32,000 bases of DNA from Patescibacteria group bacterium (lineage in GTDB: Bacteria; Patescibacteriota; Minisyncoccia; UBA6257; HR35), in NCBI GenBank assembly GCA_023480925.1, contig JAMCWY010000019.1:1-32000 (forward strand), given 5' to 3'. A model generated the notes under the pieces. The model ran no database searches. It saw only the letters and a program-made list of their open reading frames with translations, and was not told the DNA's origin. The position numbers and the translations under genes are program-made. Of the stretch, positions 1,866 to 31,157 are shown piece by piece (position 1 is the stretch's first letter; each line of letters begins with the position of its first letter).

Positions 1866-4559
1866 ATGAAAAAAACCGCGGTCAAAAAAGAATTGACGTC
1901 AGTTTCCAAAAACAAAACTCTTCGCTTGAACCGATACTTTAGCCAAGAAAATATTCAGCCCTACGATCAAGTTGAATGGGTTAAAACCGACGCCGTCATT
2001 GCCGGATCTCAGGGGCCAAGTTTTGAACAAAAAAATGTCGAGTTCCCGAATTTTTATTCTCAAAACGCGATTAATATTATCAGTTCAAAATACTTTCGAT
2101 TTCAGGGCGAGAAAAAAGAAAAATCTTTAAAAAATATTATCGACCGAGTCGTTAAAATTTTCCGGGCCTGGGCTGAAGATCAAAATTATTTTCGAACTAA
2201 AACCGAGGCGGAAATTTTCGAAAACGAGTTGACCTTTCTTATCCTTGACCAACGGGCTTGGTTTAATTCGCCTATTTGGTTTAATGTCGGCGTCAAAGAA
2301 AAACCGCAATGTTCGGCTTGTTTTATTCTTTCAGTCGAAGACTCGATGGAATCGATTTTAAATTGGATCAAAACCGAAGGATTAATTTTTAAAAACGGCT
2401 CCGGCTCCGGCATCAATCTTTCACCCCTGCGGGGCAAAGGTGAAACCTTAAATAGCGGTGGATCTTCTTCCGGCCCGATTTCATTTATGACCGCGGCCGA
2501 CGCTGTAGCTGGATCGATCAAATCCGGCGGTTCGACTCGCCGAGCGGCCAAGATGCTTATTCTCAACGCCGACCATCCGGATATTTTGGAATTTATCCAA
2601 GTCAAAACAAAAGAAGAAGACAAGATCCGCGCCTTGATCGAAGCCGGTTATGACTTAACCGACATGAATAATCCTCTTTGGCAAAATATTTTTTTTCAAA
2701 ACGGCAACAATTCCATTCGAATTCCCGACGAGTTAATGACCGCAGCCTTAGCCGATGAAGATTGGCCGGTTTATAATATTCACGATCGCGCCGTCGCTAA
2801 AAACTATAAGGCCAGGTTTATTCTTGAAGAAATAGCCAAGGCGGCTTGGTCTTGCGGCGATCCCGGCGTCCAATTCGACACGACAATCCAAAAGTGGCAC
2901 ACCTGTAAAAATTCAGACAAAATAAATGCGACTAATCCCTGCGCCGAGTATATTTTTCTTGACAACACCAGTTGTAATCTCAGCTCGATCAATCTCTTAA
3001 AATACTTGCGCGAAGACGACAGTTTTGATATCGAAGGTTTTAAACAAACCGCGCGAATAATGTTCATGGCCCAAGATCTTTTAATCGACAAAGCCGGTTA
3101 TCCCACGAGTCAAATTGAAGAAGAAACGAGAAAATATCGAACAATTGGCCTTGGTTACGCCAATCTTGGCGCTCTCTTAATGGCGCTTGGCCTGCCTTAT
3201 GATTCAGACGAAGGCCGCGCCTGGGCGGCTTCTTTAACCGCCCTTCTCACCGGTCAGGCTTACAAAACCTCGGCTCAAATGGCTGCTCAACTTGGTCCAT
3301 TCGAACAATTTGAGCAAAACCGCGAACCAATGTTCAAGATAATTGAAGCTCATCGAGAAAAAATCAATGAAATTGACGGTCGGTTAGCGCCAAAAGATAT
3401 TTTGGCCGCGGCCAGAAAAATTTGGAATGAAACGCTTGAACTTGGACAAAGATTTGGTTTTCGCAACGCTCAAGCAACCGTCTTGGCGCCGACGGGAACG
3501 ATTGGTTTAGCTATGGATTGCGACACAACCGGAGTTGAACCGGATTTTGCTTTGGTCAAGATGAAACAGTTGGTCGGCGGCGGTTATATGACCTTCGTCA
3601 ATAAAACCGTCAAGACCGGGTTAAAACGACTCGGCTATAACGAAGAAGAAATTAAAATCATCGTTGACCATCTTGAAAAAAATCGCAATATTGAAACAGC
3701 GCCGATTCTGAAATCGAAAGATTTGGCTGTTTTCGACTGCGCGGTTAAGCCAACTGGCGGCCAACGTTCAATCCATTGGCGCGGCCACGTCAAAATGGTC
3801 GCCGCGGTTCAACCATTTATCTCGGGCGGTATCTCGAAAACATTCAATATGCCGAATGAGGCCGGCGTTGACGAAATTTACAACGCCTATATCGAAGCCT
3901 GGAAACTCGGAATCAAGTGCTTCGCCGTCTACCGCGACGGTTCAAAAGCGACCCAGGCGCTTTACAGTGGCGATAAAAACAAAAAAAGCGGTGAAGAAAA
4001 AAAAATTCAAATCCAAAGAAAAAAATTGCCCGACCGACGCGCTTCTGAGACCCACAAATTCACCGTTGCCGGCCACGAAGGCTTTTTGACTTACAGTTTT
4101 TACGAAGACGGCAATCTCGGCGAGATCTTCATCCGAATGTCAAAACAAGGCAGTACCCTTTCCGGTCTTTTAGACGCTTTCTCGATCTCGGTCTCAATCG
4201 CCCTCCAATACGGCGTGCCTTTAAAAACTTTGGCTCAAAAATTTATTCACATGCGGTTTGAACCAATGGGCGTAACCAATAACGACGAGATTAGAATCGC
4301 CAGTTCAATTATTGATTACATCTTTAAGTATTTAAGTTTCAGATTTTTCACCAGCGAAGAATTATTTGAACTCGGTCTTCAATTAAAGCCGGAAAATTAT
4401 GCCGTCTTGGAAAGTCAACCAAAACTTTTTGAACAAAATAAACGTAACTCGACCGAATCGCCCGGACCGCCCTGCAAATTTTGCGGCGGTCTGACGATGA
4501 GAACCGGCAGCTGCTACACTTGCGTCGAGTGCGGTGAAAGCAGCGGCGGGTGCGGTTAA
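1866..4559 (+). CDS. nrdJ: Class II (adenosylcobalamin-dependent) ribonucleotide reductase
   Basis: 897-aa ORF starting at ATG. It has the RNR active-site loop NPCAEYIFLDNTSCNLSSINL, VLAPTGTIG and AVYRDGSK segments, and the Cys-rich C-terminal tail CKFCGG...CYTCVECG...GGCG typical of NrdJ. Confidence 0.9.
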   Translation: MKKTAVKKELTSVSKNKTLRLNRYFSQENIQPYDQVEWVKTDAVIAGSQGPSFEQKNVEFPNFYSQNAINIISSKYFRFQGEKKEKSLKNIIDRVVKIFRAWAEDQNYFRTKTEAEIFENELTFLILDQRAWFNSPIWFNVGVKEKPQCSACFILSVEDSMESILNWIKTEGLIFKNGSGSGINLSPLRGKGETLNSGGSSSGPISFMTAADAVAGSIKSGGSTRRAAKMLILNADHPDILEFIQVKTKEEDKIRALIEAGYDLTDMNNPLWQNIFFQNGNNSIRIPDELMTAALADEDWPVYNIHDRAVAKNYKARFILEEIAKAAWSCGDPGVQFDTTIQKWHTCKNSDKINATNPCAEYIFLDNTSCNLSSINLLKYLREDDSFDIEGFKQTARIMFMAQDLLIDKAGYPTSQIEEETRKYRTIGLGYANLGALLMALGLPYDSDEGRAWAASLTALLTGQAYKTSAQMAAQLGPFEQFEQNREPMFKIIEAHREKINEIDGRLAPKDILAAARKIWNETLELGQRFGFRNAQATVLAPTGTIGLAMDCDTTGVEPDFALVKMKQLVGGGYMTFVNKTVKTGLKRLGYNEEEIKIIVDHLEKNRNIETAPILKSKDLAVFDCAVKPTGGQRSIHWRGHVKMVAAVQPFISGGISKTFNMPNEAGVDEIYNAYIEAWKLGIKCFAVYRDGSKATQALYSGDKNKKSGEEKKIQIQRKKLPDRRASETHKFTVAGHEGFLTYSFYEDGNLGEIFIRMSKQGSTLSGLLDAFSISVSIALQYGVPLKTLAQKFIHMRFEPMGVTNNDEIRIASSIIDYIFKYLSFRFFTSEELFELGLQLKPENYAVLESQPKLFEQNKRNSTESPGPPCKFCGGLTMRTGSCYTCVECGESSGGCG

Positions 4560-5200
4560 GGCAAGTTAATTGTTTGACTTGAAGGCGAACCAATCTGGCA
4601 AGGGCCGGAACTAACACCGGTTAGAACAACTTCGATCGTATCGTTTGAGTGAAAATCGCGGCTGGGTAAACTCAAAGTAAACATATCGCCGGGACCGGAA
4701 AAGCCAAATGAACTAGGATTAGTCTCGAAACTTTCATTCATCCCGAATCCGCTCGTCTGATCATTAGCTCTAACGGAAAAAGTACAAATAGCCGCTTGAG
4801 TCAAGCTGATTGTACCCACAACAGAATAACCTATTAAAGCATTGCCCCTCGTCTGCAAAAGAGTCAGCGACATGCTTGAAGTTTGGCCGCCGCCACTCGT
4901 ACCGCCTGGCGGATTGATAGTTACCCCGGGCGGATTATTGCCGTTGCCAGCGCCAGTCGGCGCGGAAGGCAAAGTTCCGCCCGAGACAAACGATTGAATA
5001 ATGACTGGCAAGCTCGCGGCTAAAACAATAATAGCGATGCCAATAATAATCCAAATCAAATTTTGATGAATTGAAGAAACATTGCCGCCGCCGGCAACAT
5101 ACTTAAACCCGGTAATGATTATCATCAAAACCGAAAAAGTCAAACCGCCCAGATAAAGAACATGGGACAAACCTTGAATAATGTGAAGCAGGTCAGGCAT
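4556..5200 (-). CDS. Pilin-hairpin paralogue P214: N-terminal VirB2/TrbC-like two-TM hairpin, Gly/Pro linker, C-terminal Cys-paired ectodomain
   Basis: ATG at 5200. There is no signal peptide. TM1 is LGGLTFSVLMIIITGFKYV, the loop is AGGGNVSSIHQN, and TM2 is LIWIIIGIAIIVLAASLPVII. The linker is SGGTLPSAPTGAGNGNNPPGVTINPPGGTSGGGQ, followed by about 110 aa with a C-x61-C pair. The stop shares the tetranucleotide TTAA with the nrdJ stop. Confidence 0.7.
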   Translation of the reverse strand: MPDLLHIIQGLSHVLYLGGLTFSVLMIIITGFKYVAGGGNVSSIHQNLIWIIIGIAIIVLAASLPVIIQSFVSGGTLPSAPTGAGNGNNPPGVTINPPGGTSGGGQTSSMSLTLLQTRGNALIGYSVVGTISLTQAAICTFSVRANDQTSGFGMNESFETNPSSFGFSGPGDMFTLSLPSRDFHSNDTIEVVLTGVSSGPCQIGSPSSQTINLP

Positions 5201-5218
5201 AAAAGTTTTTAAAATTAT

Positions 5219-6568
5219 TTATTGGCCGCCGTGAATCGAAATTTGTCTGGGCGAAGCATAATCACTAGTAACAACGCAATCGCTACCAGGTTGAATTGAC
5301 AACTTTAACTCCTGGTAAGTATTATTAAAAAGACCCAAGCTCATATACGCGGTTGAAAATGGTTGAGTCTGGCCTCCAGTTGTCGGGATATTATTTAAGT
5401 AGAAACTAACTGGTTGGTTAAAAGTATTAATATCCGACTGGGTAATGCTATTAATATTTTGGTTGTTTAAGCCGCTGACATAAATGCCGCTGATTAAACC
5501 TTGAACCGCGCAGTTAGCCGGAGCGCTGTTTGGATTATCAGCGAGATAGTTAATTTGAACATAAAATGGCGGATCGTAAAGATATGAACCATTAAGATAC
5601 ACAAAACCAAGATTTGTGATCCAATTGAAAAAATTATTATTATTCAAACCGCTAAGACTGTATGACTGCGCGCCATAAATTGTTATTCCGCCATAAAGAA
5701 TATTAACTTGGGTTTGCTGAACCGCGATTGGCGCTGACGGTAGGGTGTAAGAATAGGTTGATTCCGGCACAGTGCAAGCGCTGACATTGTTGCTTGAAAA
5801 AACAACACGAAGATTATCGCCGGGTTGGGCATTCAAACTTGAAAGCAAGAGCAGGAATCCGCCGGGCGGACTGATTATGGTCCCAGTAACCGGCAACTGC
5901 GTTCCCTGAGTGACATTATAAACGCTGGCGCTAAGACTACAATCACCGGCGTTAGCGGGAATGCTGCCGTTAAGGTCGGCAAAACCAGTCAGACCGCTTC
6001 TCTGGTTGTTATAGCCTAGATCGGTGATAACAACTTGAGCTGGTTGCGCTTGAGGCGAACCGGCACCACCACCAGTGCCGCTAACCGGCGGCGGAGTCGT
6101 GCCACTTAATGTCAACTCCAGCCCCTGAACAATACTAAAAGCCAAAACCGCGACGATAATACCAGTTAAACCATAATAAAGTCTTTTGTGCACGTCCGGA
6201 GCGTTGCCGGGCTTGGTGATATAAATTATTCCGGCCCAGATTAAAAATATAACCGCCAAAAATAAAGCTAAAGTGTAAACCACTCTCAAAGTTTTATCTA
6301 AAAGCCACAAAAGACACTGACCGAGACCGCCGGCGCTGCCAGTGCAAGCGGACTGAGTCGGCAAAAAACCAAGGTAATTCGAACCGGTCTTAATACCGTA
6401 ATGAAATGGATTTTGGTATGAAGAAGAAGCTGCCGCTTGGACAAAACTGATTTTCAAAAAACCGAACAAAAGAAAAACAAAAATAACACCGGCCAAAATA
6501 AATTTTAAATCTTTTTTAAATTCTTTCAGACGACTTGGTTTGATTTTGACCCGATTTAAAATTTTCAT
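5219..6568 (-). CDS. Pilin-hairpin paralogue P449: signal/anchor, Cys loop, two-TM hairpin, Gly/Pro linker, large Asn/Ser/Thr-rich C-terminal ectodomain
   Basis: ATG at 6568. It has a hydrophobic N-terminus (FILAGVIFVFLLFGFL) and a C-x9-C loop before TM1. The hairpin is LAVIFLIWAGIIYITKPGNAPDVHKRLYYGLTGIIVAVLAFSIV and the linker is SGTTPPPVSGTGGGAGSPQAQPAQ. About 280 aa follow, carrying two further Cys pairs (C-x54-C and C-x77-C). Confidence 0.7.
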   Translation of the reverse strand: MKILNRVKIKPSRLKEFKKDLKFILAGVIFVFLLFGFLKISFVQAAASSSYQNPFHYGIKTGSNYLGFLPTQSACTGSAGGLGQCLLWLLDKTLRVVYTLALFLAVIFLIWAGIIYITKPGNAPDVHKRLYYGLTGIIVAVLAFSIVQGLELTLSGTTPPPVSGTGGGAGSPQAQPAQVVITDLGYNNQRSGLTGFADLNGSIPANAGDCSLSASVYNVTQGTQLPVTGTIISPPGGFLLLLSSLNAQPGDNLRVVFSSNNVSACTVPESTYSYTLPSAPIAVQQTQVNILYGGITIYGAQSYSLSGLNNNNFFNWITNLGFVYLNGSYLYDPPFYVQINYLADNPNSAPANCAVQGLISGIYVSGLNNQNINSITQSDINTFNQPVSFYLNNIPTTGGQTQPFSTAYMSLGLFNNTYQELKLSIQPGSDCVVTSDYASPRQISIHGGQ

Positions 6569-6587
6569 TTTGCCATTTATTTTTAAA

Positions 6588-7025
6588 TTAACCGGTTAAG
6601 CTAATTTCTAAAGCCTTGACGATAGCAAAGGCCAAAATCGCGACGCCAACGCCCCAGATCACCCAAATTAATTGTTTGTGAATATTTTCCGCTCCGCCTG
6701 ATCCGCTGACATACCTGAAACCGATATAAATCAAATAACCAACGCTTAAAAGCATCACGACCGTGTAAGCAACACTTAGAATTTTAATTAAATAAAAAAT
6801 GACGCACTTGCCCAAAAGACCTTGGCGAACACTAAGATTAACCCCGCCGCTTTGTTCAAAAATATTTATCTCCGATCCGCCGCACCTAACGCCCGTCTGG
6901 TTAAAATTTAAACTGTCGACGCCGGCGGCGAAAACAGAACCAAGATTAAAAATAAACAACCCAATTAAAACAATGATAGCAATATTAAAAAAATTTTTTT
7001 TATCTTTTTTAAACCGACTGAGCAT
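6588..7025 (-). CDS. Pilin-hairpin paralogue P145 (VirB2/TrbC-like small membrane protein)
   Basis: ATG at 7025. It has a signal-like N-terminus (IAIIVLIGLFIFNLGSVFAAG) and a C-x25-C loop. The hairpin is VVMLLSVGYLIYIGFRYVSGSGGAENIHKQLIWVIWGVGVAILAFAIV. Confidence 0.7.
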   Translation of the reverse strand: MLSRFKKDKKNFFNIAIIVLIGLFIFNLGSVFAAGVDSLNFNQTGVRCGGSEINIFEQSGGVNLSVRQGLLGKCVIFYLIKILSVAYTVVMLLSVGYLIYIGFRYVSGSGGAENIHKQLIWVIWGVGVAILAFAIVKALEISLTG

Positions 7026-7055
7026 TAAAATAAATTTTTATTTTTTTAACTTGTT

Positions 7056-7439
7056 TTAAATACCGGTACTGACCCAGAATTCAATCAGTTTAACCAAACC
7101 ATAAGCGCTTAAAGCGATAACCAAACCGATCGATCCCCAAATTAAATAAGCTTTGATTTTGTTCGCCTCTTCCGGCTTACCTCCGGCTTTAGTCATAAAA
7201 AGAATACCGGCCAAAATAAAGAAAATCACGGCCAAGGCGCCGCTTAAAATAATCAAGACGTTGAAAACCTGAGTGAAGAGATAAGCAAGGCAATTATTAA
7301 AACCGCTCGCGCAAGAATTGATTTCCGGCGCTGGTTGCGGTTGACCCAAACCATACTGCCACGGTATAATCGTCTGGTTAGCAGACAAGAATAAACCGTT
7401 TAAACTCGATAAAATAACTATCCGTTTATTTTTTTTCAT
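7056..7439 (-). CDS. Pilin-hairpin paralogue P127 (VirB2/TrbC-like small membrane protein)
   Basis: The start is placed at ATG 7439 (MKKNKR...) rather than the upstream TTG at 7466 used by the ORF track, because the paralogues mostly begin MKK. It has a C-x6-C loop. The hairpin is LAVIFFILAGILFMTKAGGKPEEANKIKAYLIWGSIGLVIALSAYGLV. Confidence 0.7.
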   Translation of the reverse strand: MKKNKRIVILSSLNGLFLSANQTIIPWQYGLGQPQPAPEINSCASGFNNCLAYLFTQVFNVLIILSGALAVIFFILAGILFMTKAGGKPEEANKIKAYLIWGSIGLVIALSAYGLVKLIEFWVSTGI

Positions 7440-7494
7440 TTTGTTTCGGTCAAACTCGGCAACCAACGCCAGAAAAATTGAAAATTTCCAAGAA

Positions 7495-7503
7495 ATATTA
7501 TCA
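7495..7503 (-). promoter_or_regulatory. Extended -10 candidate (TGATAATAT) between P135 and P127
   Basis: The - strand reads cttGATAATATttc, i.e. TG-a-TAATAT, in the 72-nt gap between the P135 stop (7512) and the P127 ATG (7439). Confidence 0.3.
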
Positions 7504-7511
7504 AGACAAAA

Positions 7512-7919
7512 CTAACCGCCAACACCTGAAACGTTGACGATATTTTGAAGTGCTGCAACCAAAGCGTAAGAAACTAAAGCGACAACCAGACCGATCGCGC
7601 CATAAATCAACATTGTTTTCGCTTTTTGTTGGGAGGCTGGATCGCCGGCCTTGGTGATAAAAATAATACCAGCCCAAATAAAGAAAATCACGGCCAAACC
7701 GCCGGCAACCCAAATTAAAACCTTAAAAACAATAGCAAAAATTGCGGTTATACACGTATTTAAGGTACTGCCAACAGGACAAATTTGTTGCGTAGTTGCC
7801 TGCTGAGGACTTTGAATTGGCAAGTTAATTTGCCCGTGAACCGGCAAGGCGACTATAACCGGCGTTAAAACAGCGAAGAGAGCGGCTACTAAAATTAAGC
7901 TAGAATAAAATTTCTTCAT
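7512..7919 (-). CDS. Pilin-hairpin paralogue P135 (VirB2/TrbC-like small membrane protein)
   Basis: ATG at 7919. It has a signal peptide (LILVAALFAVLTPVIVALPVHG) and a C-x8-C loop. The hairpin is LAVIFFIWAGIIFITKAGDPASQQKAKTMLIYGAIGLVVALVSYALV. Confidence 0.75.
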   Translation of the reverse strand: MKKFYSSLILVAALFAVLTPVIVALPVHGQINLPIQSPQQATTQQICPVGSTLNTCITAIFAIVFKVLIWVAGGLAVIFFIWAGIIFITKAGDPASQQKAKTMLIYGAIGLVVALVSYALVAALQNIVNVSGVGG

Positions 7920-8129
7920 TTTTTCTTAATTAGCTAACCTTAACTTTTTTAATTCGACCCAAAACTGTCCGTTAATTAAACTGGGCAGTAATTAAATTAA
8001 TAATTATTCTATTTTAAACCATATCGATCAAATCGCAAGAGCGCTGGGGATAACCAATAACAAAGATATGCTCATAGATCAGAAAAATCACTAATAGATA
8101 AATAATTCAAAGAATTTACCGCTTTTTAC

Positions 8130-9569
8130 TCAACCCAAAATACTAGTTAAAAGAGCAACAATAGCCGAGGCGATCAAAAGAAGGAAGTAACCGACAACGG
8201 CGTATTTTATCCAACCGTGGCCTTTTCTAACATACTCTTCGCTCAAAGGTGTTAAGAGATAAACCAAACCGCCAATCGTGATTAAAAGGATCAGAAGAGG
8301 AACGGACAAACTGTTAAGAAAATGTTCGATTCTATAAAAAATAGATTGGGGCGTAACGCTGGCGTAACCGCTCGGGTTGGCTAAATTATTAAAAATCCCG
8401 CCGGGAAAAACAGTGATCGGAATTGATGATGTCGTCACGCTGACGCTGCCGCCGGAAAGCGCGTATGAAGAAATATTATTCATCGAGGTTTGGAGCTGAT
8501 TAGAAGCGTTGGTTACGTTCGTATTGGCGGCTTGTAAATTAGAATTAGCCTGGTCGCAGGCTGATAAGATTTCGCTATCAGTTGAATTCAAACTAGCCAA
8601 CTTATTTAAACAATTATCATAATTTCTAATCGCGGCCCTTAAACTATCAACCGATGTTATAGAAGCAGAAGTTTGATTAGTAGAAATTAATTCCTCTACG
8701 CCGCTGTTCATTTTTTCCAAATAAGCGTAAAGCGTATCGTAACAATAACCCGGCGAGGTAGATCCGCTTGGGCAAACGGCAACTTCAACGCCAGGAATAT
8801 TACTAGTGTTGTACACGACAGCGACACCAAAAGAAAGAAGATCTTTATAAAAACTATTATATAAAGTGCTAATCAGCTGATTCTCAAGGTTGTTTTGATT
8901 CACTCCCGCGCTGAGATTATTTCTTAAATTAAGCAACGCTTGTTTAAGTCGCGGGTTGCCTCTAACTCTGGTTTGAGCGTTTTGAATAATCGAATTCCAA
9001 CTATCAACTTCTAATAGCTGTACATTTGGAAAAGGGCTTGGAGTAGTGACACTAGTGATACCCAAAATTTTATTAGTCACGTCGCGGAACATCCTCAAGA
9101 CATCGATCAAGTAAAGTTGATAGGCGTTATCCGCTATTAAAGTATTCTCATTACTAGTTATCTTCTGCGCTATAATAAAATCACTGTCTTCTTTTCTCAC
9201 ACGATACGGGTCAAGCCCGTTTAAAAAATTATTAGCGAACTCAGCGACATAACACATCCGATAATAAACTGAATTTAAAGAACAATTATGATTGGTATAA
9301 TTCAGCGCCGGCGATGGCGTCCAACCGGTCATTAAATCACTCCGGTCGGTCGATGGAAAATAACCAGATGAATTTGGAAAATTCCTTTCAATAATATTGG
9401 TCAAATTAATAATATCATTATTTAGAGCCGTGTTTATATCTTGCTTGTAACCAGTCTCGATTTGTTGTTCAACGTCAGATCCTGATTGGGCCAAACTAAA
9501 ATGAGAACTTGGCCAAAACAACGAAAGCGCGGTACCAATCAGAACTAAAACCACAAATTTCTTTTTCAT
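8130..9569 (-). CDS. Pilin-hairpin paralogue P479: signal peptide, large N-terminal ectodomain, C-terminal two-TM hairpin
   Basis: ATG at 9569 overlaps the stop of the upstream gene (ATGA). The signal peptide is MKKKFVVLVLIGTALSLFWPSSHFSLAQ. The roughly 400-aa Asn/Ser-rich ectodomain has three Cys pairs (C-x9-C, C-x9-C, C-x17-C). The C-terminal hairpin is VPLLILLITIGGLVYLLTPLSEEYVRKGHGWIKYAVVGYFLLLIASAIVALL. Confidence 0.7.
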   Translation of the reverse strand: MKKKFVVLVLIGTALSLFWPSSHFSLAQSGSDVEQQIETGYKQDINTALNNDIINLTNIIERNFPNSSGYFPSTDRSDLMTGWTPSPALNYTNHNCSLNSVYYRMCYVAEFANNFLNGLDPYRVRKEDSDFIIAQKITSNENTLIADNAYQLYLIDVLRMFRDVTNKILGITSVTTPSPFPNVQLLEVDSWNSIIQNAQTRVRGNPRLKQALLNLRNNLSAGVNQNNLENQLISTLYNSFYKDLLSFGVAVVYNTSNIPGVEVAVCPSGSTSPGYCYDTLYAYLEKMNSGVEELISTNQTSASITSVDSLRAAIRNYDNCLNKLASLNSTDSEILSACDQANSNLQAANTNVTNASNQLQTSMNNISSYALSGGSVSVTTSSIPITVFPGGIFNNLANPSGYASVTPQSIFYRIEHFLNSLSVPLLILLITIGGLVYLLTPLSEEYVRKGHGWIKYAVVGYFLLLIASAIVALLTSILG

Positions 9570-10006
9570 TTGGCAATTGTCTTAATGACCGCCTCGATAA
9601 TAGCATAACCAAAAATGATCGCGAATCCGATCGTTGACCAGATCAGAATCGTCTTAGCCCATTTTAGCCAGCCGGAATTAAGAGTTTCGCCAAAAATCAA
9701 GTAGGCGCCGGCGACGACGATCGCCAATGAAAAAAGGACGGCCGCGACGATTCTTAACTTGCTCGCGATCGCGGTCATACAACTGATGATTTCATCCAAG
9801 GCCGTACTGCCCTGAAGGCAATTTGGTCCGTGCGCCGCGTTTCTAATCTGATCGTAAAAAACGTTTGGACTGCTTGGATTGGTTGTCGGCGCCGGGCTCG
9901 AACCGCTTGGCTGAAAATTTGAAGCTGTCTTAGCCAAAACAAAAACAGCCGAGCTAAACGCCAGAGCGAAAAAAAATAAAAACATAATTAAAAATATTTT
10001 TTTCAT
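9566..10006 (-). CDS. Pilin-hairpin paralogue P146 (VirB2/TrbC-like small membrane protein)
   Basis: ATG at 10006, 1 nt after the stop of P126. It has a signal peptide (IFLIMFLFFFALAFSSAVFVLA), a Pro/Ser-rich spacer and a C-x12-C loop. The hairpin is AAVLFSLAIVVAGAYLIFGETLNSGWLKWAKTILIWSTIGFAIIFGYAII. Confidence 0.65.
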   Translation of the reverse strand: MKKIFLIMFLFFFALAFSSAVFVLAKTASNFQPSGSSPAPTTNPSSPNVFYDQIRNAAHGPNCLQGSTALDEIISCMTAIASKLRIVAAVLFSLAIVVAGAYLIFGETLNSGWLKWAKTILIWSTIGFAIIFGYAIIEAVIKTIAK

Positions 10007-10007
10007 C

Positions 10008-10388
10008 TTATGGTCCGCCGGGCGGATGGAGGGTACCGCCGATAAATTGAAGAACTAAATCGAAAAAGATGCCGGCGAAGACAACGACAGCGTAACCAAT
10101 CAAAGCCTTAACCATCATACTTTTGCCTTTTTCGGCCGTACCTGGGTTAGCGCCGCCAAACATATACATAAAGGCGCCGATAACAACTAAAATGCTTACA
10201 AGAACAAAAGCTAAATCAAGCGTGATAAACCTAAGAACATTTCCGGTGGTCGCGATAACATTGGCCCAAGCGCAATCAACGCCAGTGCAGCTTTGATCAA
10301 CTAAAGGTAAGGCCGTTTGGGCGAAAACGCCGTAACCAAAACCAAAACCGACGATTGAAAATAAAAGCGAAATAATTAACACCTTCAT
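10008..10388 (-). CDS. Pilin-hairpin paralogue P126 (VirB2/TrbC-like small membrane protein)
   Basis: ATG at 10388 overlaps the TGA of the upstream SBP-like gene (ATGA). It has a signal peptide (VLIISLLFSIVGFGFGYGVFA) and a C-x4-C loop. The hairpin is LAFVLVSILVVIGAFMYMFGGANPGTAEKGKSMMVKALIGYAVVVFAGIFF. Confidence 0.65.
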   Translation of the reverse strand: MKVLIISLLFSIVGFGFGYGVFAQTALPLVDQSCTGVDCAWANVIATTGNVLRFITLDLAFVLVSILVVIGAFMYMFGGANPGTAEKGKSMMVKALIGYAVVVFAGIFFDLVLQFIGGTLHPPGGP

Positions 10389-11674
10389 CTTGTAAAAATC
10401 TGATTCAATTGGGTTGACCCGATCAAATATCCTGTTTCTTGCTTATTCGTGATCCAGTTGGAAAAATCGCTTGGCAAAATTTGTTTAAGAAAATCTAGAT
10501 TCCAATTGGAAAAACTTTCGCCGGCGATAATTTCGTTAAAAACGATCTTCTCGTCGCCGCTTAAATTTTGGGCCAAACTCAGTTTAAGCGGCAAAATATT
10601 AGCCTGCTTGGTTAAATCGCCGTAACTTTTATCCAGCTGCGTTAAAAGAATTTTCATCGCCGCCAGTTTCACCGGTTTTATTTTAGGCAAGGCAAAGTAA
10701 TAAACTTTCAAAAAATTTGTTTTGAGCGGATAAGCTTGAAAATGCGGGAACGGCGCGATGGCGAAATTTAAACGCGGGTTGAAACCGGTAATTTGGTCTT
10801 TAACCGAATAATAATCAAAAATCAAGGCGACTTTGTTCTGGCTGAATAATTTTAAATCATTGTCCATATTCTCGTTCCAAGAATAATCGTTTGAATTTTG
10901 ATTAGCGAACTGAGTGTAAAAATCAAAAGCCTGACCCAAGCTTTTCATTAACTCGACGCTGTTGTAATTTTGGCCATTAAAGTTAACGCCGCCGATCATT
11001 TTCGCAATCGCGGCAAAAATCTCAGCCGAGTGATCAATATTATTGGCCGCGCCCAGGGCGACCGGGGCTAAATTAAAATTGCCGCTCGAATCTTTTTTCC
11101 TTAATTCCGGCACGATGCCGGTAATCGCTTCGAACGTCGCCGGCGGTTGGCTTAGACCAATCGAGTTGAAATAATCAACGTTCCAAAAAGAAACAAGAGC
11201 GTCGGCCGTGACCGGATAAAGACCGGGATTTTGAACGATAAATTTTTTGACGCCGTCGGGATAATTATTAGTATCCAAAGGCAAGCCGGCTAAACTGCTT
11301 TCAAAGATATTTTTATTGTCTGAATAATAACGACCGCTGACGTAAACCAAATCGGGCGGGTTGTTGGCCGCGGCCAAACTTGAAACCAAATCGGCCTCAA
11401 TCTGACTTTCCGATTTCTGAACCAAATTTAACACAATACAATAACCACGTAATGACTGGCTCAGTTTGCCAAAGGCGGAATAATTAAAAGGCGACCAAAT
11501 CGTGAAAGTTTGATTGTAGCAAGTAGTCGGATGACTGCCGCCGTTGGCGGTCGGCTTGCTTTTCGAAGCCAGTGAATGAAAAAGCCAAAAAATAATAATC
11601 AGACCAACGACAATCCCGCCGATAACCAACTGAAAATTTCGATCTGATTTTAATCTTTCCAAAAAATCCGACAT
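10385..11674 (-). CDS. Membrane-anchored extracellular solute-binding-protein-like protein (SBP family 1-like), orphan
   Basis: The start is placed at ATG 11674 (MSDFLERL...); the ORF track start at 11692 is a TTG. It has an N-terminal TM anchor (LVIGGIVVGLIIIFWLF). The mature part has the layout of sugar-type ABC substrate-binding proteins (TFTIW..., NNPPDLVYVS, SFWNVDYFNSIGLSQPPATFEAI, KVALIFDYY). No permease or ATPase gene is adjacent. Confidence 0.5.
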   Translation of the reverse strand: MSDFLERLKSDRNFQLVIGGIVVGLIIIFWLFHSLASKSKPTANGGSHPTTCYNQTFTIWSPFNYSAFGKLSQSLRGYCIVLNLVQKSESQIEADLVSSLAAANNPPDLVYVSGRYYSDNKNIFESSLAGLPLDTNNYPDGVKKFIVQNPGLYPVTADALVSFWNVDYFNSIGLSQPPATFEAITGIVPELRKKDSSGNFNLAPVALGAANNIDHSAEIFAAIAKMIGGVNFNGQNYNSVELMKSLGQAFDFYTQFANQNSNDYSWNENMDNDLKLFSQNKVALIFDYYSVKDQITGFNPRLNFAIAPFPHFQAYPLKTNFLKVYYFALPKIKPVKLAAMKILLTQLDKSYGDLTKQANILPLKLSLAQNLSGDEKIVFNEIIAGESFSNWNLDFLKQILPSDFSNWITNKQETGYLIGSTQLNQIFTR

Positions 11675-11706
11675 TCTTTTATTATATTCCAAACCAAAGT
11701 TTAAAA

Positions 11707-12255
11707 TTAATTTTCAACCTGACCGGCAAAAAGATGATAACCGTCGAAATTTTCAGCCGCGATTAAACTAAACCCGGCCTGAGCCAGCCAAGCTTTAATC
11801 TGGTCGGCGGAAACCACATTATAGTCATTAGTCTGGCTGAACGGCTTAAGAAAAGGATGAACCTGGTCTGGTTCGACCAAAACAACATAGCCTTTCCGGC
11901 GCAAAACCCTCTTCGCCTCGTCGATAATTCGTTTATCCGCCTCAGCGTGGTTTTGAAATAAAACCTGACTGATAAAAACAAGATCAACGCTCTCGCTTAA
12001 TAAATTCGTCCGCTCCAGATTAACAAGAGCGCAATTAATATTATTTAAATTTAAAACCTCGGCCAACTCTTTTGTCTCTTTAACCGCCTCGGCCGAAAAA
12101 TCCAAAGCAAAAACCTGGCCGTCCGGACCGACCGTCTGAGCTAAAAGAGCGCTGAAATAACCGCCACCGCAACCAAAATCAGCGACCCGAAAACCTTTAA
12201 CGAGAATCAAATGTTTGGTTAAAAAATCGATTACCCTATTGGGTTTTAAGAACAT
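11707..12255 (-). CDS. Class I SAM-dependent methyltransferase
   Basis: ATG at 12255. It has the motif I sequence [11 protein letters not shown], an acidic post-I residue (VFALDFS), and DLVFISQVL / GYVVLVE motifs. It overlaps the gyrA 3' end by 20 nt. Confidence 0.75.
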
Positions 12256-14575
12256 TGATTTTTTTGATTTTACCGATAAGTTTCTTTGGTTGGTTGACTC
12301 GTTTTAACAAGGGCAGATCTTTAACCGTTAAGGTTGAAATTTTGTCGTCAATAGCCAAAAGCTGATCTTCTTTGGAAAGAACTTGACTAAATATAAGTTT
12401 ACCAATTTTTTCACCCGGTTCAAAAACTTTTATACCAAGGCCGCCGCGACGTTGGAGTTTGATCTCGTCTAAATCAATCTTTTTGACAAAGCCCTGATCG
12501 AAAACCAAAACCAGTTCTTTGTTGGTCCGAACGACTAAATCGAAAACTTCATCATCCTTTAATTTAATCATCTTAACGCCCGCGGCTGATCGCGTCTGAC
12601 CGGTCAAATCGTCTTTAAAAGAAAGAGCGAAACCGGCTCGCGTCAGCAGAATTAAATCGCCTTGGTTATAAGTCGCGACCGCGGCAACCTCATCGTTCTT
12701 TTTTAACTTGATAATTTGCAAACCGGTTTTCTTTTGAGAGAGACAATCGGCGATGGCGATCTTCTTGCCTAAACCGTTTTTCGTCGCTAAAAATAAAAAT
12801 CTGTCTGACCGCTCGACTTTAAATGTTTTTAAGATCTGGTCGTTATGATTGAGACTGATTTCCGCTTCAAGATACTTTTGGTTCTGATAAAAGTTATAAA
12901 TTGGCACTTGGTAAATCCTACCCTTCTTCGTTAAAAGCCAAAGTTTTTCTGTTGTTCGAGCTAAAATAATCTGGCCAAAATTATCTTTTTCTTTGGTCAA
13001 CTTTTCCACGGGCGTACCGATTGGAAAAGTTGAAACGTATTCCTTGGCGTCGATAAAAACAAGAACGTCCTCGTCGGCGATCGATTCGGCTTCGGTTTCT
13101 TCTTCTAATTTTTCATTGACAATTTCGGTCCGACGCTCATCGCCGTATTTTGTTTTGATTTCTTCAATTTCTTTTTTTAAAACACCCTCGAGCTTTTTTC
13201 GGCTGGCCAAAATTTCTTCCAATTCTTTTTGAAGTTTTAATTTTTCTTTTAGCTCGGTTTCAATTTTTAGTTTTTCCAAATTGGTTAACGTCCGCAAGGG
13301 CATCTCTAAAATACTTTCGGCTTGCCGTTCGGATAAACTTAAATTCTTGATCAATTTCGATTTCGCCTCGTCTTTATCTTTTGAATTCCGAATTAACCGA
13401 ATGACCAAATCAATTTTATCTAAGGCTTTTTTAAACCCCTCGAGGAGATGAATTCGATCTTTAACCTTTTCCAATTCGAATTTCGTCCGACGCGTGATCA
13501 CTTCTTTCCGGTGATCGAGCCATTCCAACAAAATCGACTTCAAATCGTAAAGTTTCGGTTGAACGCCGTGTTCAAGCGCGACCAAGTTAATCGAAAAATT
13601 TTTTTGGAAATCGGTCAAACGGTAAAGTTTTTCCACCACGGCCGCGGCCTGATTTTCTCGCAACTCGATCACGACCCGAACACCCTCCTTGTTCGACTCA
13701 TCCCGAACATCTTTGATTTGAGGCAAAGTTTTAGCCAAAGAAAGTTCGGCAATTTGGCGAACCAACTCAGCCTTATTAACCTGATAGGGCAATTCAATCA
13801 GAACAACCCGCTCATCCCCGCGTTTGTTTTGTTCAATTTTATATCGACCCCGAATAACAATTCGACCGCGGCCGGTTTGATAAACTTCGGCCAAACGCTC
13901 GCGGTCGTAAATAATTCCGGCTGAAGGAAAATCCGGTCCTTGAATTAATTTCAAAATTTCTTTAAGCGAACCATTTTGATTGTCAACTAAAAAAGTCAGA
14001 GCCGAGCAAACTTCTTTTAAGTTATGAGGCGGAATGTTCGTCGTCATGCCAACGGCGATACCGAGGTTGCCGTTGACGATTAGATTGGGAATTTTCGCTG
14101 GCAGGACCTTTGGTTCCTTTTTAGTGTTATCGTAGTTGGGCATAAAATCAACCGTCTCTTTATCCAACTCCGTAATCATCTCTTCGGCAATCTCGGTTAG
14201 ACGCGCTTCGGTGTAGCGGTAAGCCGCGGCCGGATCGCCGTCAATCGAACCAAAATTGCCCTGGCCGTCAACGAGCGGGGAACGGAGAGAGAAATCTTGG
14301 GCTAAACGAACGAGAGTCTCATAAGTGGCCGCGTCGCCGTGGGGATGATACTTGCCTAAAACATCGCCGACGATCCGAGCGCACTTCATGTATTTGGCAT
14401 TATGGTCCAGACCCAACTCTTTCATCACAAACAGAATTCGACGCTGGACCGGTTTGAGGCCGTCGCGAGCGTCGGGAATAGCCCGGCTGACAATAACGCT
14501 TAAAGCGTAATCAAGATAAGAAGTTTTTAATTCGTTTGTGATTTCCGATTGGATAATTTTTTCTTTCATCGCCAT
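12236..14575 (-). CDS. gyrA: DNA gyrase subunit A
   Basis: 779 aa. It has [18 protein letters not shown], the QRDR-equivalent [21 protein letters not shown], the catalytic Tyr context [10 protein letters not shown], and a C-terminal beta-pinwheel-like repeat region. Confidence 0.95.
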
Positions 14576-14866: not shown

Positions 14867-15382
14867 TTAATGCATTAAATAAAATGCCGGCGCGATTTTT
14901 TTTGAATTAATTTTAACTTCATTTGTTTTTTCCCGTTTTAAATCCAAAGCCCTGCTTCTGTCGCTAAAGCCGATCCAAACAAGCGGCTTAAAGTACGATT
15001 TAATTTTACTGATCGAACCGGCCGATAGTTCCTTAAAAAGAACGACGTCGATTTTTTCAAACTCGAGACTGATTTCTTTTAAAACCGCGTCGCTTATATC
15101 GGTCGGGCAATAAAGATAATTTAAACCCTCGTTGTCCCTGATGATGAAAAAAAGTTTTTTCGCTTCGGCTGATTTCAATTTGGATTGAAGAAAAGCTTGA
15201 AAATAAAAATTGCCCGCTTCGTACTGGCCGGTCAAGTTGAAAATCCTGCCATCGTTTATATTTCTTTCCCAGTCGGTCAGAATGTTCACGCCCGCTTCAA
15301 CTCTGTTCGGATCGAGATAAACTTTGGCCGTCTTATCATAACTCAGGACAAATTTATTTTCGGGAGTTTTTTTAATTATCAT
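14867..15382 (-). CDS. Hypothetical soluble protein (171 aa)
   Basis: The start is placed at ATG 15382 (MIIKKTPENKF...). The extension to 15421 in the ORF track covers a TGTTATAAT promoter motif. No family recognised. Confidence 0.5.
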   Translation of the reverse strand: MIIKKTPENKFVLSYDKTAKVYLDPNRVEAGVNILTDWERNINDGRIFNLTGQYEAGNFYFQAFLQSKLKSAEAKKLFFIIRDNEGLNYLYCPTDISDAVLKEISLEFEKIDVVLFKELSAGSISKIKSYFKPLVWIGFSDRSRALDLKREKTNEVKINSKKIAPAFYLMH

Positions 15383-15404
15383 CTTGCCTTGATTGATTTT
15401 TAAT

Positions 15405-15413
15405 ATTATAACA
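15405..15413 (-). promoter_or_regulatory. Extended -10 promoter element TGTTATAAT for the 171-aa hypothetical gene
   Basis: The - strand reads ttcgaccaagagttgatttaTGTTATAATatt, with TTCGAC 17 nt upstream as a -35 candidate. The ATG is 22 nt downstream of the hexamer. Confidence 0.5.
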
Positions 15414-15555
15414 TAAATCAACTCTTGGTCGAATGAGACGAAACAGCCGTGGTCAAAACGGCTCGCCCGAACCGTTTATTGCCAGTTTAAGTTTGTTTCC
15501 AAAAAATAAATAAAAACAACGCGTCTTTCCGCGAACTGATTCAAATAGATTCGTT

Positions 15556-21990: not shown

Positions 21991-23553
21991 TTAGTTTTGA
22001 ATGTTAACCTTGATTTTGCTCGCGTCCAAAGGAAACGATTTCTGCCAAAATGGCCAAATTTCAATATCGGCTTTTTCAACCTGGTCCAAGGATTTTAGAT
22101 AATCGCGGATGTCGGTTAAAGACTTCCCCCTTAACTCCTGAACGATTTTTTGACTATCAAGAATTTCCTTGGTCGTAACCGTTCCTGTCGCCTCGATCGC
22201 CTCATTCTTAAAGTCCGGATCAAGTTGCTGAAGTTTGACCTTATCAATACTGATATTGGTAATCTCGACATTATTTTTATTGGCTAGATTTTTTTTGGCG
22301 AAAATATCTTTGAGAAGTGAAATAAGCAATTCCTTTTTAACGCCAATCGCTTTCAGCTCGCCCGTGCCGCTTACCATAATTTTGGCCGCGGTCTGGCCAA
22401 CCTGGTTGGAAACGTCGGTAACTTGAACGTTAATTTGGCCAATTTCTTCCGGAAAAACATAGTCCGGATACTTCAAGGCAAGATCCTTGACCAAAAGATT
22501 GTTTAACTCGTTCTCCAACTTGACCCGACCATTATTAATATCGTCGATTAAAACCGTGTGGGAAACGTTGCCACCACCACCACCGCTAATCGTCCCTTTC
22601 GATTGAGCCGTAATTAACTTCTGCCAACTCGTTCCGGCTAAGCCCGGGATAGTGAAATTCGTCGTGGTCGAAAGATTATAGTCGCCACTTGAACCGTCGG
22701 CGGTGACTTGAACATCAACACTGCCTTGACCAGAAACATAAACCTGACTCAAAGAACGATAAATCTTACCGGCGGGTGATTGAAAACGGGTGCCGGGAAC
22801 CAAAGTCAAACTGTCGGCCGAAGAATCGGTTAAAACGATTACGCCCTGAGCGCGATTGTTCACGCCAAGACTTGGTCCGGTTGTCGTTTGAAAAACGCTA
22901 TCGTTTTTAGTGATGTCAACGAAAGTCCCGGGCAAGGTGTGCGTGTCGATATTTTCCGAAGTGGCGTTACGGTCAAGAATAATAATCTCGTCAAACTTCT
23001 GGGTATCTTCCTTGGGCGTGATATCAACCTTGGCGCTGGTGCTGAAACCGCCCACGACAAATAAACCCAAACCGGTCAGGGCGATCGCGGCGGCGGTGAC
23101 AAGAAAGATCTTTTTCAGTTTTTTTGTTTTTTTCGTTCGGCCGCGATCAAGAAAAATATCTTCGCCTTTCGACCGATGACGCTCGGCCTTGTGTTCGGCC
23201 GGATGATGAACCGGATTAAAATAATGAAATGGCTTCGGTTTAATCTTGGCCGGCGGCTTGATGTCTGTCACCAACTTCGCTCCTTCCGCCATCGCCTCGT
23301 ACTCTTCCATAAATAAATCAAATCCGGCTTCTTTGACCAATTTGATAATCTCTTCGTCTTCCGTGCTTAAATAAATTTTTTTCTTCAAACGTTCGGTTTC
23401 TTTTTTAAGCAAGTCAAGATTGATTGGATGGAGGAAAACTTTTGTTTTGTCCGGGACAACCAAAATTAACTCTTTACTCTCGGAGTCACGAATCAACTCA
23501 ATCACATCGCCCAACTCCTCTGTCCCTTTTAAATAAAAATAATCTTTTTCCAT
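21991..23553 (-). CDS. Hypothetical single-pass membrane protein with about 85-aa cytoplasmic N-domain and about 340-aa ectodomain
   Basis: The start is placed at ATG 23553; the TTG at 23556 is the track start. It has a basic linker (HRSKGEDIFLDRGRTKKTKKLKK) and a TM helix (IFLVTAAAIALTGLGLFVVGGF). The ectodomain segment LVPGTRFQSPAGKIYRSLSQVYVSGQGSVDVQVTADGSSGDYNL loosely resembles baseplate-J-like domains; this is recognition by eye only. Confidence 0.5.
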   Translation of the reverse strand: MEKDYFYLKGTEELGDVIELIRDSESKELILVVPDKTKVFLHPINLDLLKKETERLKKKIYLSTEDEEIIKLVKEAGFDLFMEEYEAMAEGAKLVTDIKPPAKIKPKPFHYFNPVHHPAEHKAERHRSKGEDIFLDRGRTKKTKKLKKIFLVTAAAIALTGLGLFVVGGFSTSAKVDITPKEDTQKFDEIIILDRNATSENIDTHTLPGTFVDITKNDSVFQTTTGPSLGVNNRAQGVIVLTDSSADSLTLVPGTRFQSPAGKIYRSLSQVYVSGQGSVDVQVTADGSSGDYNLSTTTNFTIPGLAGTSWQKLITAQSKGTISGGGGGNVSHTVLIDDINNGRVKLENELNNLLVKDLALKYPDYVFPEEIGQINVQVTDVSNQVGQTAAKIMVSGTGELKAIGVKKELLISLLKDIFAKKNLANKNNVEITNISIDKVKLQQLDPDFKNEAIEATGTVTTKEILDSQKIVQELRGKSLTDIRDYLKSLDQVEKADIEIWPFWQKSFPLDASKIKVNIQN

Positions 23554-23570
23554 CAACAGTTTTTGGTTGA

Positions 23571-24845
23571 TTAAACCGCTTTCGAAATTTTTTGATGCTC
23601 TTTGAATCGTTCGTTAAAAATATCTTCGACTTTTGGCGAAATTTCCATTTTTTTTATCTGCGCCAGTTCTTTTGCCAACTCCAAAGGCAAACCGTAAGTG
23701 GCGTAAAGTTGAAAAAGTTTTCCAGCCAGTTCTTCGGCCGTCTCGACGCCGGTGATGTTTCGTTCAAACCGCCTTAGAGCCTGACCCAATGTTTGTTCGA
23801 ACGTTCCCAGTTCCGCCTTAATTACTTTTAATATTTTATCATAATTCTGCAACTCCGGATAAATTTGGCCAAACTTTTCTCTAACCGATTTAATCACCAG
23901 CTCGAGTTGAACCAACTCAATCTGATTCAAGCGCAGACGCAAAGCTAAACGACGCAAGATCCGACGCAAAACATAACCGCGCTCAAGATTGCTTGGCTGG
24001 ACACCGGCGCCGGCCAAAAAAACCGCGGCCCGAACATGATCAAGAATAATTCGAAGATCAGATTGGACTAAATCAGACTTGATTTCCAAAAGCCGCGTTC
24101 GGGTTGGCTCGAATAAATCCGTCTCGAATATCGTTTCCGTTTTTTGAATCACCTTCATCAATCGTTCAAAACCCATACCCGTGTCAATACCAACAAGATC
24201 AAGTTTCTTTAATTTTCCGTCTGAATCTTGATAATACTGGTTAAAAACTAAATTCCAAACCTCAAGATCGTTAATGTAAATTTCCGTAGTCGGGCCACAC
24301 GGTCCTTCTTCACCCGTCGGTCCCCAAAAATTATCCTCCCGGCCGCGCTTTTTAATTTTATCCCCGTAGCCAATCTCGTCCCAAACTCGTGCGCTGGCTT
24401 CGTCAAAAGGAATGTCGGCTTCGCCCTTAAAAACCGTAACGGAATCAAAATTTAAACCCAATTCTTTTTCCAAAAATTCCCTCGCCCAAATAATCGCCGA
24501 TCTTTTAAAATAACCGGCCGGGCCGAAATCAGCCGGATCATCCGAACCAACCGGGCCGAAAGAAAAATTACCAAGCATTTCAAAAAAAGTCAGGTGAGTC
24601 GTGTCGCCAATTTCATTAATATCGGTCGTCCGAAAACATTTTTGGATTGAAGCAGTTCTCTGGCCGCCAAAATCAACTCGGGCGTCTTTTTCGGCCGTGA
24701 AATATTTTTTAAACTGCTGCATTCCGGCCGTGGTCAACAAGACCGACTTGTCACCAAACGGTATCAACGACGATGACTGAATAATTTTATGGCCGCGGTC
24801 GGAAAAAAAATTAAAAAATAATTTTCTGACTTCTTCCGAACTCAT
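23571..24845 (-). CDS. alaS: Alanine--tRNA ligase, aminoacylation/tRNA-recognition half only (424 aa)
   Basis: It has SSSLIPFGDKSVLLTTAGMQQFKKYF, QKCFRTTDINEIGDTTHLTFFEMLGNFSFG and GIDTGMGFERL. It ends (LYATYGLPLELAKELA...FKEHQKISKAV) where full-length AlaRS continues into the editing domain. The next gene downstream is unrelated. Confidence 0.85.
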   Translation of the reverse strand: MSSEEVRKLFFNFFSDRGHKIIQSSSLIPFGDKSVLLTTAGMQQFKKYFTAEKDARVDFGGQRTASIQKCFRTTDINEIGDTTHLTFFEMLGNFSFGPVGSDDPADFGPAGYFKRSAIIWAREFLEKELGLNFDSVTVFKGEADIPFDEASARVWDEIGYGDKIKKRGREDNFWGPTGEEGPCGPTTEIYINDLEVWNLVFNQYYQDSDGKLKKLDLVGIDTGMGFERLMKVIQKTETIFETDLFEPTRTRLLEIKSDLVQSDLRIILDHVRAAVFLAGAGVQPSNLERGYVLRRILRRLALRLRLNQIELVQLELVIKSVREKFGQIYPELQNYDKILKVIKAELGTFEQTLGQALRRFERNITGVETAEELAGKLFQLYATYGLPLELAKELAQIKKMEISPKVEDIFNERFKEHQKISKAV

Positions 24846-31074: not shown

Positions 31075-31157
31075 TTTATTTTTTGGCCGCAACCAGACCG
31101 CGCGGCGGCGACCAAGAAAAAAATTAATAAAAATGACCGCTGGATTAATTTCTTGCC

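Follow-up and report, generated by a model that had tools for sequence, protein, structure and literature searches.

Eight tandem genes share a two-helix hairpin module

The 32,000-nucleotide (nt) stretch analyzed here (the window: positions 1 to 32,000 of contig JAMCWY010000019.1, assembly GCA_023480925.1, from a Patescibacteria group bacterium) carries an array of pilin-like genes at 4556-10388. The array consists of eight consecutive minus-strand open reading frames (ORFs) that encode proteins of 126, 146, 479, 135, 127, 145, 449 and 214 amino acids (aa), hereafter named by length from p126 to p214. These genes are co-oriented and tightly packed, and independent gene calls on three further assemblies of this organism give the same eight. 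Identical proteins have been deposited as 'Patescibacteria group bacterium' (MCL5258006-16 and MCL4358549-56), and the NCBI product name 'pilin' is attached to p479 and p127. We find that all eight proteins contain a common module of 75 to 87 aa, in which two adjacent, strongly hydrophobic helices are separated by a short, Gly-rich basic loop carrying Lys, Arg or His. The hairpins are Sec-targeted members of the VirB2 superfamily, and they form a vertically inherited set of eight that is maintained under selection.

An earlier reading of the letters alone (the sequence-only reading) had described eight consecutive same-strand genes with a common module, and the ORFs, the agreeing gene calls and our profile searches all bear this out. 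The modules are divergent, with pairwise identities of 13 to 49% (mean 22%), and their alignment contains one invariant position, a Gly in helix 2. The two motifs proposed in that reading, G-x-x-[FY]-[IMVL] and [LI]-[IY]-[WY]-x-x-x-G, each occur exactly in six of the eight proteins and are offset in the other two. Topology and signal peptides were judged by hydropathy and inspection. By this measure, six or seven of the eight begin with a signal-like hydrophobic segment that has an A-x-A-type end; the segment is absent from p214.

The unity of the family was assessed with leave-one-out hidden Markov models (HMMs), each trained on seven modules and run over the full set of 185 six-frame ORFs in the window. 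Seven of these runs were read (that of the 127/136-aa member excepted), and in every one the held-out member was the best non-training match. The E values were 9e-9 for p126, 2.6e-5 for p146, 6e-6 for p479, 7e-20 for p135, 8e-9 for p145, 2e-18 for p449 and 1e-9 for p214. Among the 185 ORFs, unrelated sequences reached E values of 0.29 at best, and neither of the multi-transmembrane (TM) proteins Wzy and FtsH was matched. The top non-pilin match of the module HMM was repeatedly an ORF of 184 aa that lies upstream of gyrA and is of unknown family (14867-15421, minus strand), at non-significant values (E 0.3-2); this ORF has a 33% identical counterpart in L018, a related locus described below.

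The module is of the VirB2/TrbC-T4SS_pilin kind

Comparison with curated families confirms, at the level of sequence, that the module is of the VirB2/TrbC-T4SS_pilin kind, as the sequence-only reading had recognized from its architecture. Three proteins exceed the gathering cut-off (26.6 bits) of PF18895, the T4SS_pilin family: p479 with 31.5 bits (residues 410-473), p135 with 36.9 bits and the 127/136-aa protein with 42.1 bits. Four others match below it (p126, 23.1; p449, 22.9; p145, 20.1; and p214, 14.2 bits). PF04956 (TrbC) gives sub-threshold matches to five of the eight and none above its cut-off, the best being p126 (20.6 bits) and p214 (19.8 bits). The remaining protein, p146, has no Pfam match at all and is recognized only by the module profile built within the window. 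Weak matches to the NCBIfam family NF045849 were obtained for four of the eight, the best of them (p135, 32.7 bits) lying below the 40-bit cut-off.

To these matches we can add a direct alignment with VirB2 itself. We assembled six annotated VirB2/TrbC proteins of mating-pair-formation type T (MPF-T) systems: Agrobacterium VirB2, verified as 100% identical to the annotated 'pilin major subunit VirB2', and five divergent proteins that are each encoded between VirB1 and VirB3 on conjugative plasmids. In hhalign, the module profile aligned with this set over 59 columns (score 28.4, E 1.3e-4, probability 54%), in register through both helices and the loop. Control alignments scored far lower, with 11.9 for the reversed VirB2 alignment and 15.1 for the best of 60 column-shuffled versions. 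Judged from these profiles, the kinship to Gram-negative VirB2 is real but distant, and the strength of the alignment is modest.

None of the eight array proteins matches the N_methyl motif of type IV pili (PF07963). A separate pilin-like gene with N_methyl and Laminin_G_3 domains does begin just after hsp20 and runs off the end of the window (about 31388-32000, plus strand); its full-length form at L008 (1691-3040) encodes 449 aa and belongs to a pilus system distinct from the array.

The array is old, collinear and chromosomal

The array has a full counterpart in the organism of loci L018 and L019, whose GyrA is 61% identical to that of the window. Here the order gyrA, methyltransferase gene, up435 (the gene directly upstream of the array; Table 1) and array is kept. 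Each of the eight window modules has its reciprocal best hit at the collinear position in L018, and the normalized scores of the orthologues (0.52-0.65) exceed every within-genome paralogue score (0.47 or less). Thus, the eight-member set is old, and each of its members has been individually retained. The orthologue of p146 is L018.2 (48.5% identical), and that of p126 is L018.1. Synteny with gyrA is kept across genera, and we regard the locus as part of the chromosome, passed on vertically and not carried by a mobile element; the sequence-only reading had likewise argued for a chromosomal system and against a conjugative element.

Two of the eight genes are joined in this relative. At L018 12245-13243 (JGI 3300035183, Ga0373637_0003694), the orthologues of p127 and p145 form a single protein of 332 aa that contains two complete pilin hairpins separated by a low-complexity linker of the YDPNSDPNYDP type; its second half is 48% identical to p145. 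By the usual gene-fusion argument, this natural fusion suggests that p127 and p145 contact each other.

More distant arrays lie beside secretion genes. A search with the module profile recovered PF18895 proteins mainly from Patescibacteria, Saccharibacteria included. At L011, eight tandem pilin genes adjoin two TrbL_3 (VirB6-like) genes. At L013, six pilin genes are divergent from genes for TrbL_3, PrgI (VirB3-like), a TraC-like protein and a 629-aa VirB4 (DUF87/P-loop_TraG). The window pilins match such pilins in BLASTP, the best case being p135 against an L013 pilin (36% identity over 124 aa, E 3e-15). The claim that the pilins come with no secretion machinery therefore stands for their neighborhood only, since homologous arrays adjoin VirB6, VirB3, TrsD and VirB4 genes and most Patescibacteria encode VirB4. 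Note that an Hsp20 gene lies directly beside the pilin arrays of these two unrelated loci (L011 10492-10953 and L013 11014-11472). The window Hsp20 (30655-31092) is 33 to 36% identical to both and lies about 20 kb from the array. The pairing of Hsp20 genes with pilin arrays may be due to chance or may preserve part of an ancestral gene order.

Variation is concentrated in three ectodomains

Large extra domains are carried by three of the eight proteins, N-terminally in p479 and C-terminally in p449 and p214, and the other five have scarcely anything beyond 25 to 45 residues apart from the hairpin. We found 91 representative homologues of p479, about 45 of which are 400 to 540 aa long and match it only in the C-terminal 110 to 175 aa. 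Scans of a species-representative genome collection with p479 and p127 as queries gave no match. Its AlphaFold2 model has an overall predicted local distance difference test score (pLDDT) of 61.4, with values of about 80 at residues 305-479 and a helical N-terminal part of low confidence; a Foldseek search of this model against the PDB gave no match with E < 1. Only eight distant homologues of p449 were found, each within a pilin array and all of identical architecture, and its model is predicted to be beta-rich, again at low confidence (pLDDT 52.8). The L018 orthologue of p214 is an 87-aa, hairpin-only protein that is 55% identical and lacks the extension.

Comparison with a sister strain (97% identical) revealed no frameshifts in the array. 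Ratios of nonsynonymous to synonymous polymorphism (pN/pS) were 0.25 to 0.65 for the pilin genes and 0.08 to 0.20 for their neighbors. The array genes are under purifying selection, yet they evolve two to five times faster than the housekeeping genes around them. Within the three large proteins, 4.8 to 11.6% of ectodomain positions differ between the strains and about 1.4% of hairpin positions do; in p214, the extension differs by 11.6% and the hairpin by 1.3%.

Array genes and their neighborhood

Coordinates of the array genes, their sub-parts and the coupled upstream gene are given in Table 1.

Table 1. Features of the pilin-like array and its upstream gene, in window coordinates.
Feature	Position	Strand	Description
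up435	10385-11692	-	435 aa; one N-terminal TM segment (membrane anchor)
p126	10008-10388	-	Pilin-like hairpin protein 1: signal peptide and two-helix hairpin; 126 aa
p146	9566-10006	-	Pilin-like hairpin protein 2; 146 aa; most divergent of the eight
p479	8130-9569	-	Signal peptide, N-terminal ectodomain, C-terminal pilin hairpin; 479 aa
p479 ectodomain	8355-9488	-	About 380 aa, predicted all-alpha
p479 hairpin	8133-8354	-	
Intergenic gap	7920-8129		210 bp inside the array, between p479 and p135
p135	7512-7919	-	Canonical small pilin: signal peptide, Cys-containing N-out segment, hairpin; 135 aa
p127	7056-7439	-	Canonical small pilin; 127 aa from ATG
p145	6588-7025	-	Small pilin-like hairpin protein; 145 aa
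p449	5219-6568	-	Signal peptide, hairpin, Gly/Pro/Thr linker, C-terminal ectodomain; 449 aa
p449 hairpin	6101-6319	-	
p449 ectodomain	5222-6100	-	About 290 aa, predicted beta-rich, four invariant Cys
p214	4556-5200	-	N-terminal hairpin, no signal peptide, C-terminal extension; 214 aa
p214 hairpin	4973-5200	-	
p214 extension	4559-4972	-	About 140 aa, Gly/Ser/Thr-rich

The three hydrophobic segments of p146 correspond to a signal peptide and the hairpin. The p127 ORF reaches an upstream TTG at 7466, which would extend the protein to 136 aa, and p127 is the closest paralogue of p135 (49% identity). In the gap between p479 and p135, two sigma-70-like sites overlap on the minus strand (8038-8003). 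Both are consensus matches only, and they could mark an internal promoter from which p135 and the downstream genes are transcribed; counts of promoter-like and terminator-like sites in the region show no excess over shuffle expectation. We also considered whether p135 ends in a terminator-like hairpin that would mark it as a 'major pilin' gene, and dropped the idea, as the fold is no better than that of shuffled sequences (z = -1.6). At the other end of the array, the stop codons of the convergent genes nrdJ (plus strand) and p214 (minus strand) overlap by 4 nt (4556-4559), which leaves zero intergenic room for terminators.

The overlapping stop and start codons that the sequence-only reading placed in the upstream part of the locus are all present: 20 nt between gyrA and the methyltransferase gene, 4 nt between up435 and p126, and 4 nt between p146 and p479. 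The product of up435, which is translationally coupled to p126, belongs to no Pfam or NCBIfam family and has a 42.5% identical orthologue at the equivalent position in L018. A profile of three up435 orthologues gave weak but consistent matches to MalE and other sugar-binding proteins of ATP-binding cassette (ABC) transporters (E 0.014-0.2), so that up435 tentatively resembles a substrate-binding protein. No ABC permease or ATPase gene occurs in its vicinity.

The array sits among core genes, as had been stated. The other genes of the window encode a Wzy_C/TPR protein, a ribonucleotide reductase of class II, a methyltransferase, a subunit of the GyrA/ParC family (labelled topoisomerase IV subunit A by NCBI), an F420-ligase-like protein, a RimK-like ATP-grasp protein, an S1 protein, FtsH, TrmD, a KH protein, alanyl-tRNA synthetase (AlaRS), DnaJ, DnaK, GrpE and Hsp20. 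The GC content of the array is like that of its flanks, with no compositional anomaly, and the window contains no tRNA genes and no Rfam families. Pfam scans of the window detected no type IV secretion system (T4SS) ATPase, channel, relaxase, coupling protein or integrase, in keeping with the earlier claim. Unannotated window ORFs were also considered as cryptic T4SS parts and rejected, because BLASTP matched none of them to a T4SS gene of L011 or L013 and relaxed Pfam searches were null.

Several further observations concern the neighboring genes. The AlaRS gene (23571-24845, minus strand) encodes only 424 aa, comprising the catalytic core (Pfam positions 1-428 of 552), and an ORF of 521 aa without a Pfam family lies 15 nt downstream of it (21991-23556, minus strand); together they may represent a split or highly diverged AlaRS. 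The GyrA/ParC-family gene at L002 2025-4360 (GCA_023381135.1) was called as pieces of 349, 169 and 256 aa, and its counterpart is a single intact ORF of 779 aa in the window (12236-14575), L001 and L004. This splitting likely reflects assembly or frameshift errors in the deposited metagenome-assembled genome. In the sister strain, just left of the window (L020 9505-14976), the interval between ftsW and a Wzy-like gene holds seven co-oriented genes without a Pfam family (164, 129, 287, 412, 370, 103 and 250 aa), one or more of which encode a membrane-embedded product.

The array belongs to a known arrangement

The sequence-only reading had presented the arrangement as unprecedented, but arrays of 2 to 11 such genes are on record in four papers (PMC12102498, PMC10633639, PMC7427843 and PMC12857230). 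Its description of the system as constitutive also goes beyond what a sequence can show. A survey of 3,035 genomes (Quinonero-Coronel et al. 2025, PMC12102498) recorded 441 VirB2 arrays of 2 to 11 genes in 383 assemblies. These arrays are commonest in Microgenomatia and Saccharimonadia and have a mean identity of 25% and a maximum of 54%. According to the same survey, VirB4 is encoded in most Patescibacteria genomes, and a pilin gene lies near virB4 in only 1,135 of 1,948 VirB4-containing assemblies. In Southlakia epibionticum ML1, a pilin array and the T4SS are essential (Wang et al. 2023, PMC10633639; PMC12857230). The 'Sec-secreted array' of TM7x was likened to pertussis toxin (McLean et al. 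2020, PMC7427843), and a 2025 review regards a pilus on a Gram-positive-type cell as an 'intriguing possibility' (PMC12857230).

The survey defined an array as at least two genes matching PF04956 or PF18895 with i-E < 0.001 and > 50% profile coverage, in tandem or with a one-gene gap. Six of the eight window genes pass (p126, p479, p135, p127, p145 and p449), and p146 and p214 would be missed. The window array shares with those of other Patescibacteria its phylum, its PF18895/PF04956 matches, its Sec signal peptides, a chromosomal location and the lack of a nearby relaxase. Its size falls within the published range, and its within-array identities (mean 22%, maximum 49%) are close to the published ones. 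It differs in lying away from virB4 and virB6, as happens in about 40% of published pilin-bearing assemblies. We conclude that it belongs to a known arrangement, in the subclass not adjacent to virB4, and it is very probably this lineage's copy of the chromosomal pilin-array kind of Patescibacteria.

Further differences are the operon-like context with gyrA, the methyltransferase gene and up435, the fusion of three of the eight pilins to ectodomains and the eight collinear orthologues; we did not find this context, such fusions or collinear orthology discussed in the four papers. The collinear orthology, the p127-p145 fusion, the fast-evolving ectodomains and the coupled up435 go beyond what we found in those papers.

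Other known systems are less similar. The T-pilin of MPF-T systems (Agrobacterium VirB2, PF04956) shares the signal peptide, the two-helix hairpin, the short loop and the in-register alignment. In contrast to that single pilin, the window has eight paralogues, some of 214 to 479 aa, with no adjacent virB operon and exclusively sub-threshold PF04956 matches, and its host is monoderm according to the cited papers. The Mbov_0395-family pilin-like conjugal transfer protein of Mycoplasma integrative and conjugative elements (ICEs; NF045849) is likewise a small hairpin protein of a wall-less or monoderm T4SS, but it is encoded by a single gene inside a mobile element, and all window matches to it fall below the cut-off. 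The virulence T4SSs of Bartonella and Anaplasma also have chromosomal, tandem and divergent VirB2 paralogues. Those are thought to be interchangeable variants beside their machinery (cited in PMC12102498), whereas the window paralogues are individually conserved and architecturally distinct.

Possible assembly by a distant secretion system and its alternatives

Taken together, a pilin array of the Patescibacteria kind whose products would form a heteromeric structure assembled by a T4SS is our best explanation of the locus, and we give it a probability of roughly 0.7. The basic loop between the helices and the positive-inside rule place both termini outside the cell. The hairpins would be inserted by Sec in an N-out/C-out topology, and their signal peptides would be cleaved. 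A chromosomal, monoderm-type (MPF-FATA-like) T4SS of the kind present in the phylum, composed of VirB4, TrsD, VirB3/PrgI and VirB6/TrbL_3 and presumably encoded elsewhere in the genome, would then extract them from the membrane and polymerize them into a pilus-like structure on the cell surface. The small members p135, p127, p145, p126 and p146 may build the body of the structure. The larger p479, p449 and p214 may be minor, tip or decorating subunits where the structure meets a host cell, presenting their ectodomains on exposed termini. For the specific step of assembly into a pilus by a distal T4SS, we see the chances as even.

Several results weigh against this explanation. Five of the eight members fall below the curated Pfam cut-off, and the module profile finds nothing significant among solved structures (best pilin entry 9vf4, E 2.7). 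In the sister strain, the stretch of the 226-kb contig read around the array (93,862-149,600, about 56 kb) carries only housekeeping and unknown genes, with no hit to VirB4, VirB6/TrbL, VirD4, relaxase or integrase. Housekeeping genes also surround the arrays of the nearest lineages (L015, L017 and L018/L019), none of which has a T4SS gene within 10 kb. When the L013 VirB4 was used as a query, the best 120 matches were all close Saccharibacteria, and none came from the window lineage. Furthermore, structure models of the ectodomains are of low confidence, and a helical lattice of the VirB2 type does not obviously accommodate subunits of 449 to 479 aa or a di-pilin fusion with four helices. So far no Patescibacterium has been observed with such a pilus, which a review treats as a possibility (PMC12857230).

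The alternative that survives best is that the hairpins act as T4SS-independent anchors, which merely hold exposed peptides and ectodomains on the cell surface and form no filament. The missing machinery around the array and near those of its closest relatives keeps this idea alive, and it accords with the large ectodomains of three members, with a di-hairpin fusion in L018 that would be a four-TM protein, and with basic loops, as expected of stable membrane proteins. However, the module aligns with VirB2 and is homologous to pilins inside the T4SS clusters of other Patescibacteria, and S. epibionticum requires both its pilin array and its T4SS (PMC10633639). Five of the members would display almost nothing, and eight distinct hairpins in a fixed order exceed what anchoring needs. 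We therefore consider anchoring unlikely.

It is less probable still that the array is a variation cassette, supplying interchangeable major pilins through which antigens or host range could vary, as has been proposed for the VirB2 paralogues of Bartonella and Anaplasma and suggested for Patescibacteria (PMC12102498). Such a cassette would fit the low identity within the array and pN/pS values above those of neighboring genes. It is weakened by the collinear orthology, as all eight genes have reciprocal-best orthologues that are closer than any paralogue at 61% GyrA identity. Moreover, all eight are under purifying selection, their architectures are very different, two are fused in L018, and the changes sit in the ectodomains rather than in the hairpins.

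The last two ideas are poorly supported. Release through the T4SS of a Sec-exported, multi-subunit toxin-like effector, an analogy with pertussis toxin drawn for the TM7x array (PMC7427843), would agree with Sec signal peptides and a tandem array, but it is very improbable given that every member retains a pair of strongly hydrophobic helices once the signal peptide is discounted, unlike soluble toxin subunits, and that profile matches are to pilin rather than toxin families. Pilin genes left behind by a conjugative element, at which the weak NCBIfam matches to the Mycoplasma ICE protein might hint, are scarcely credible where purifying selection acts on intact genes, GC content is like that of the flanks, gyrA synteny is conserved across genera and no relaxase, coupling protein, integrase or tRNA gene was found.

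Implications for pilin arrays in Patescibacteria

The one-to-one orthology and the p127-p145 fusion argue that the eight proteins are non-redundant parts of one heteromeric assembly and are not interchangeable. A stronger version would make the eight, possibly with up435, one obligately heteromeric VirB2-type structure with ectodomains for host binding or nutrient capture, assembled by a distant and diverged T4SS or by none. We think this version improbable. If true, it would be the first multi-subunit, ectodomain-decorated VirB2-type filament, on a monoderm cell.

In the one species tested, epibiotic growth requires the T4SS and its pilin arrays, but no pilus has been observed and no substrate is known. 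The locus described here brings no new kind of system, but it places three constraints on pilin arrays. First, each paralogue is conserved in its own right and keeps its place in the order across genera, a pattern suggestive of specialized parts rather than variants. Second, two of the paralogues can fuse, which suggests physical contact between them. Third, large and variable ectodomains on termini predicted to be exposed are candidate parts for contact with the host. These constraints point to the subunits that are worth tagging, deleting or modelling in tractable relatives.

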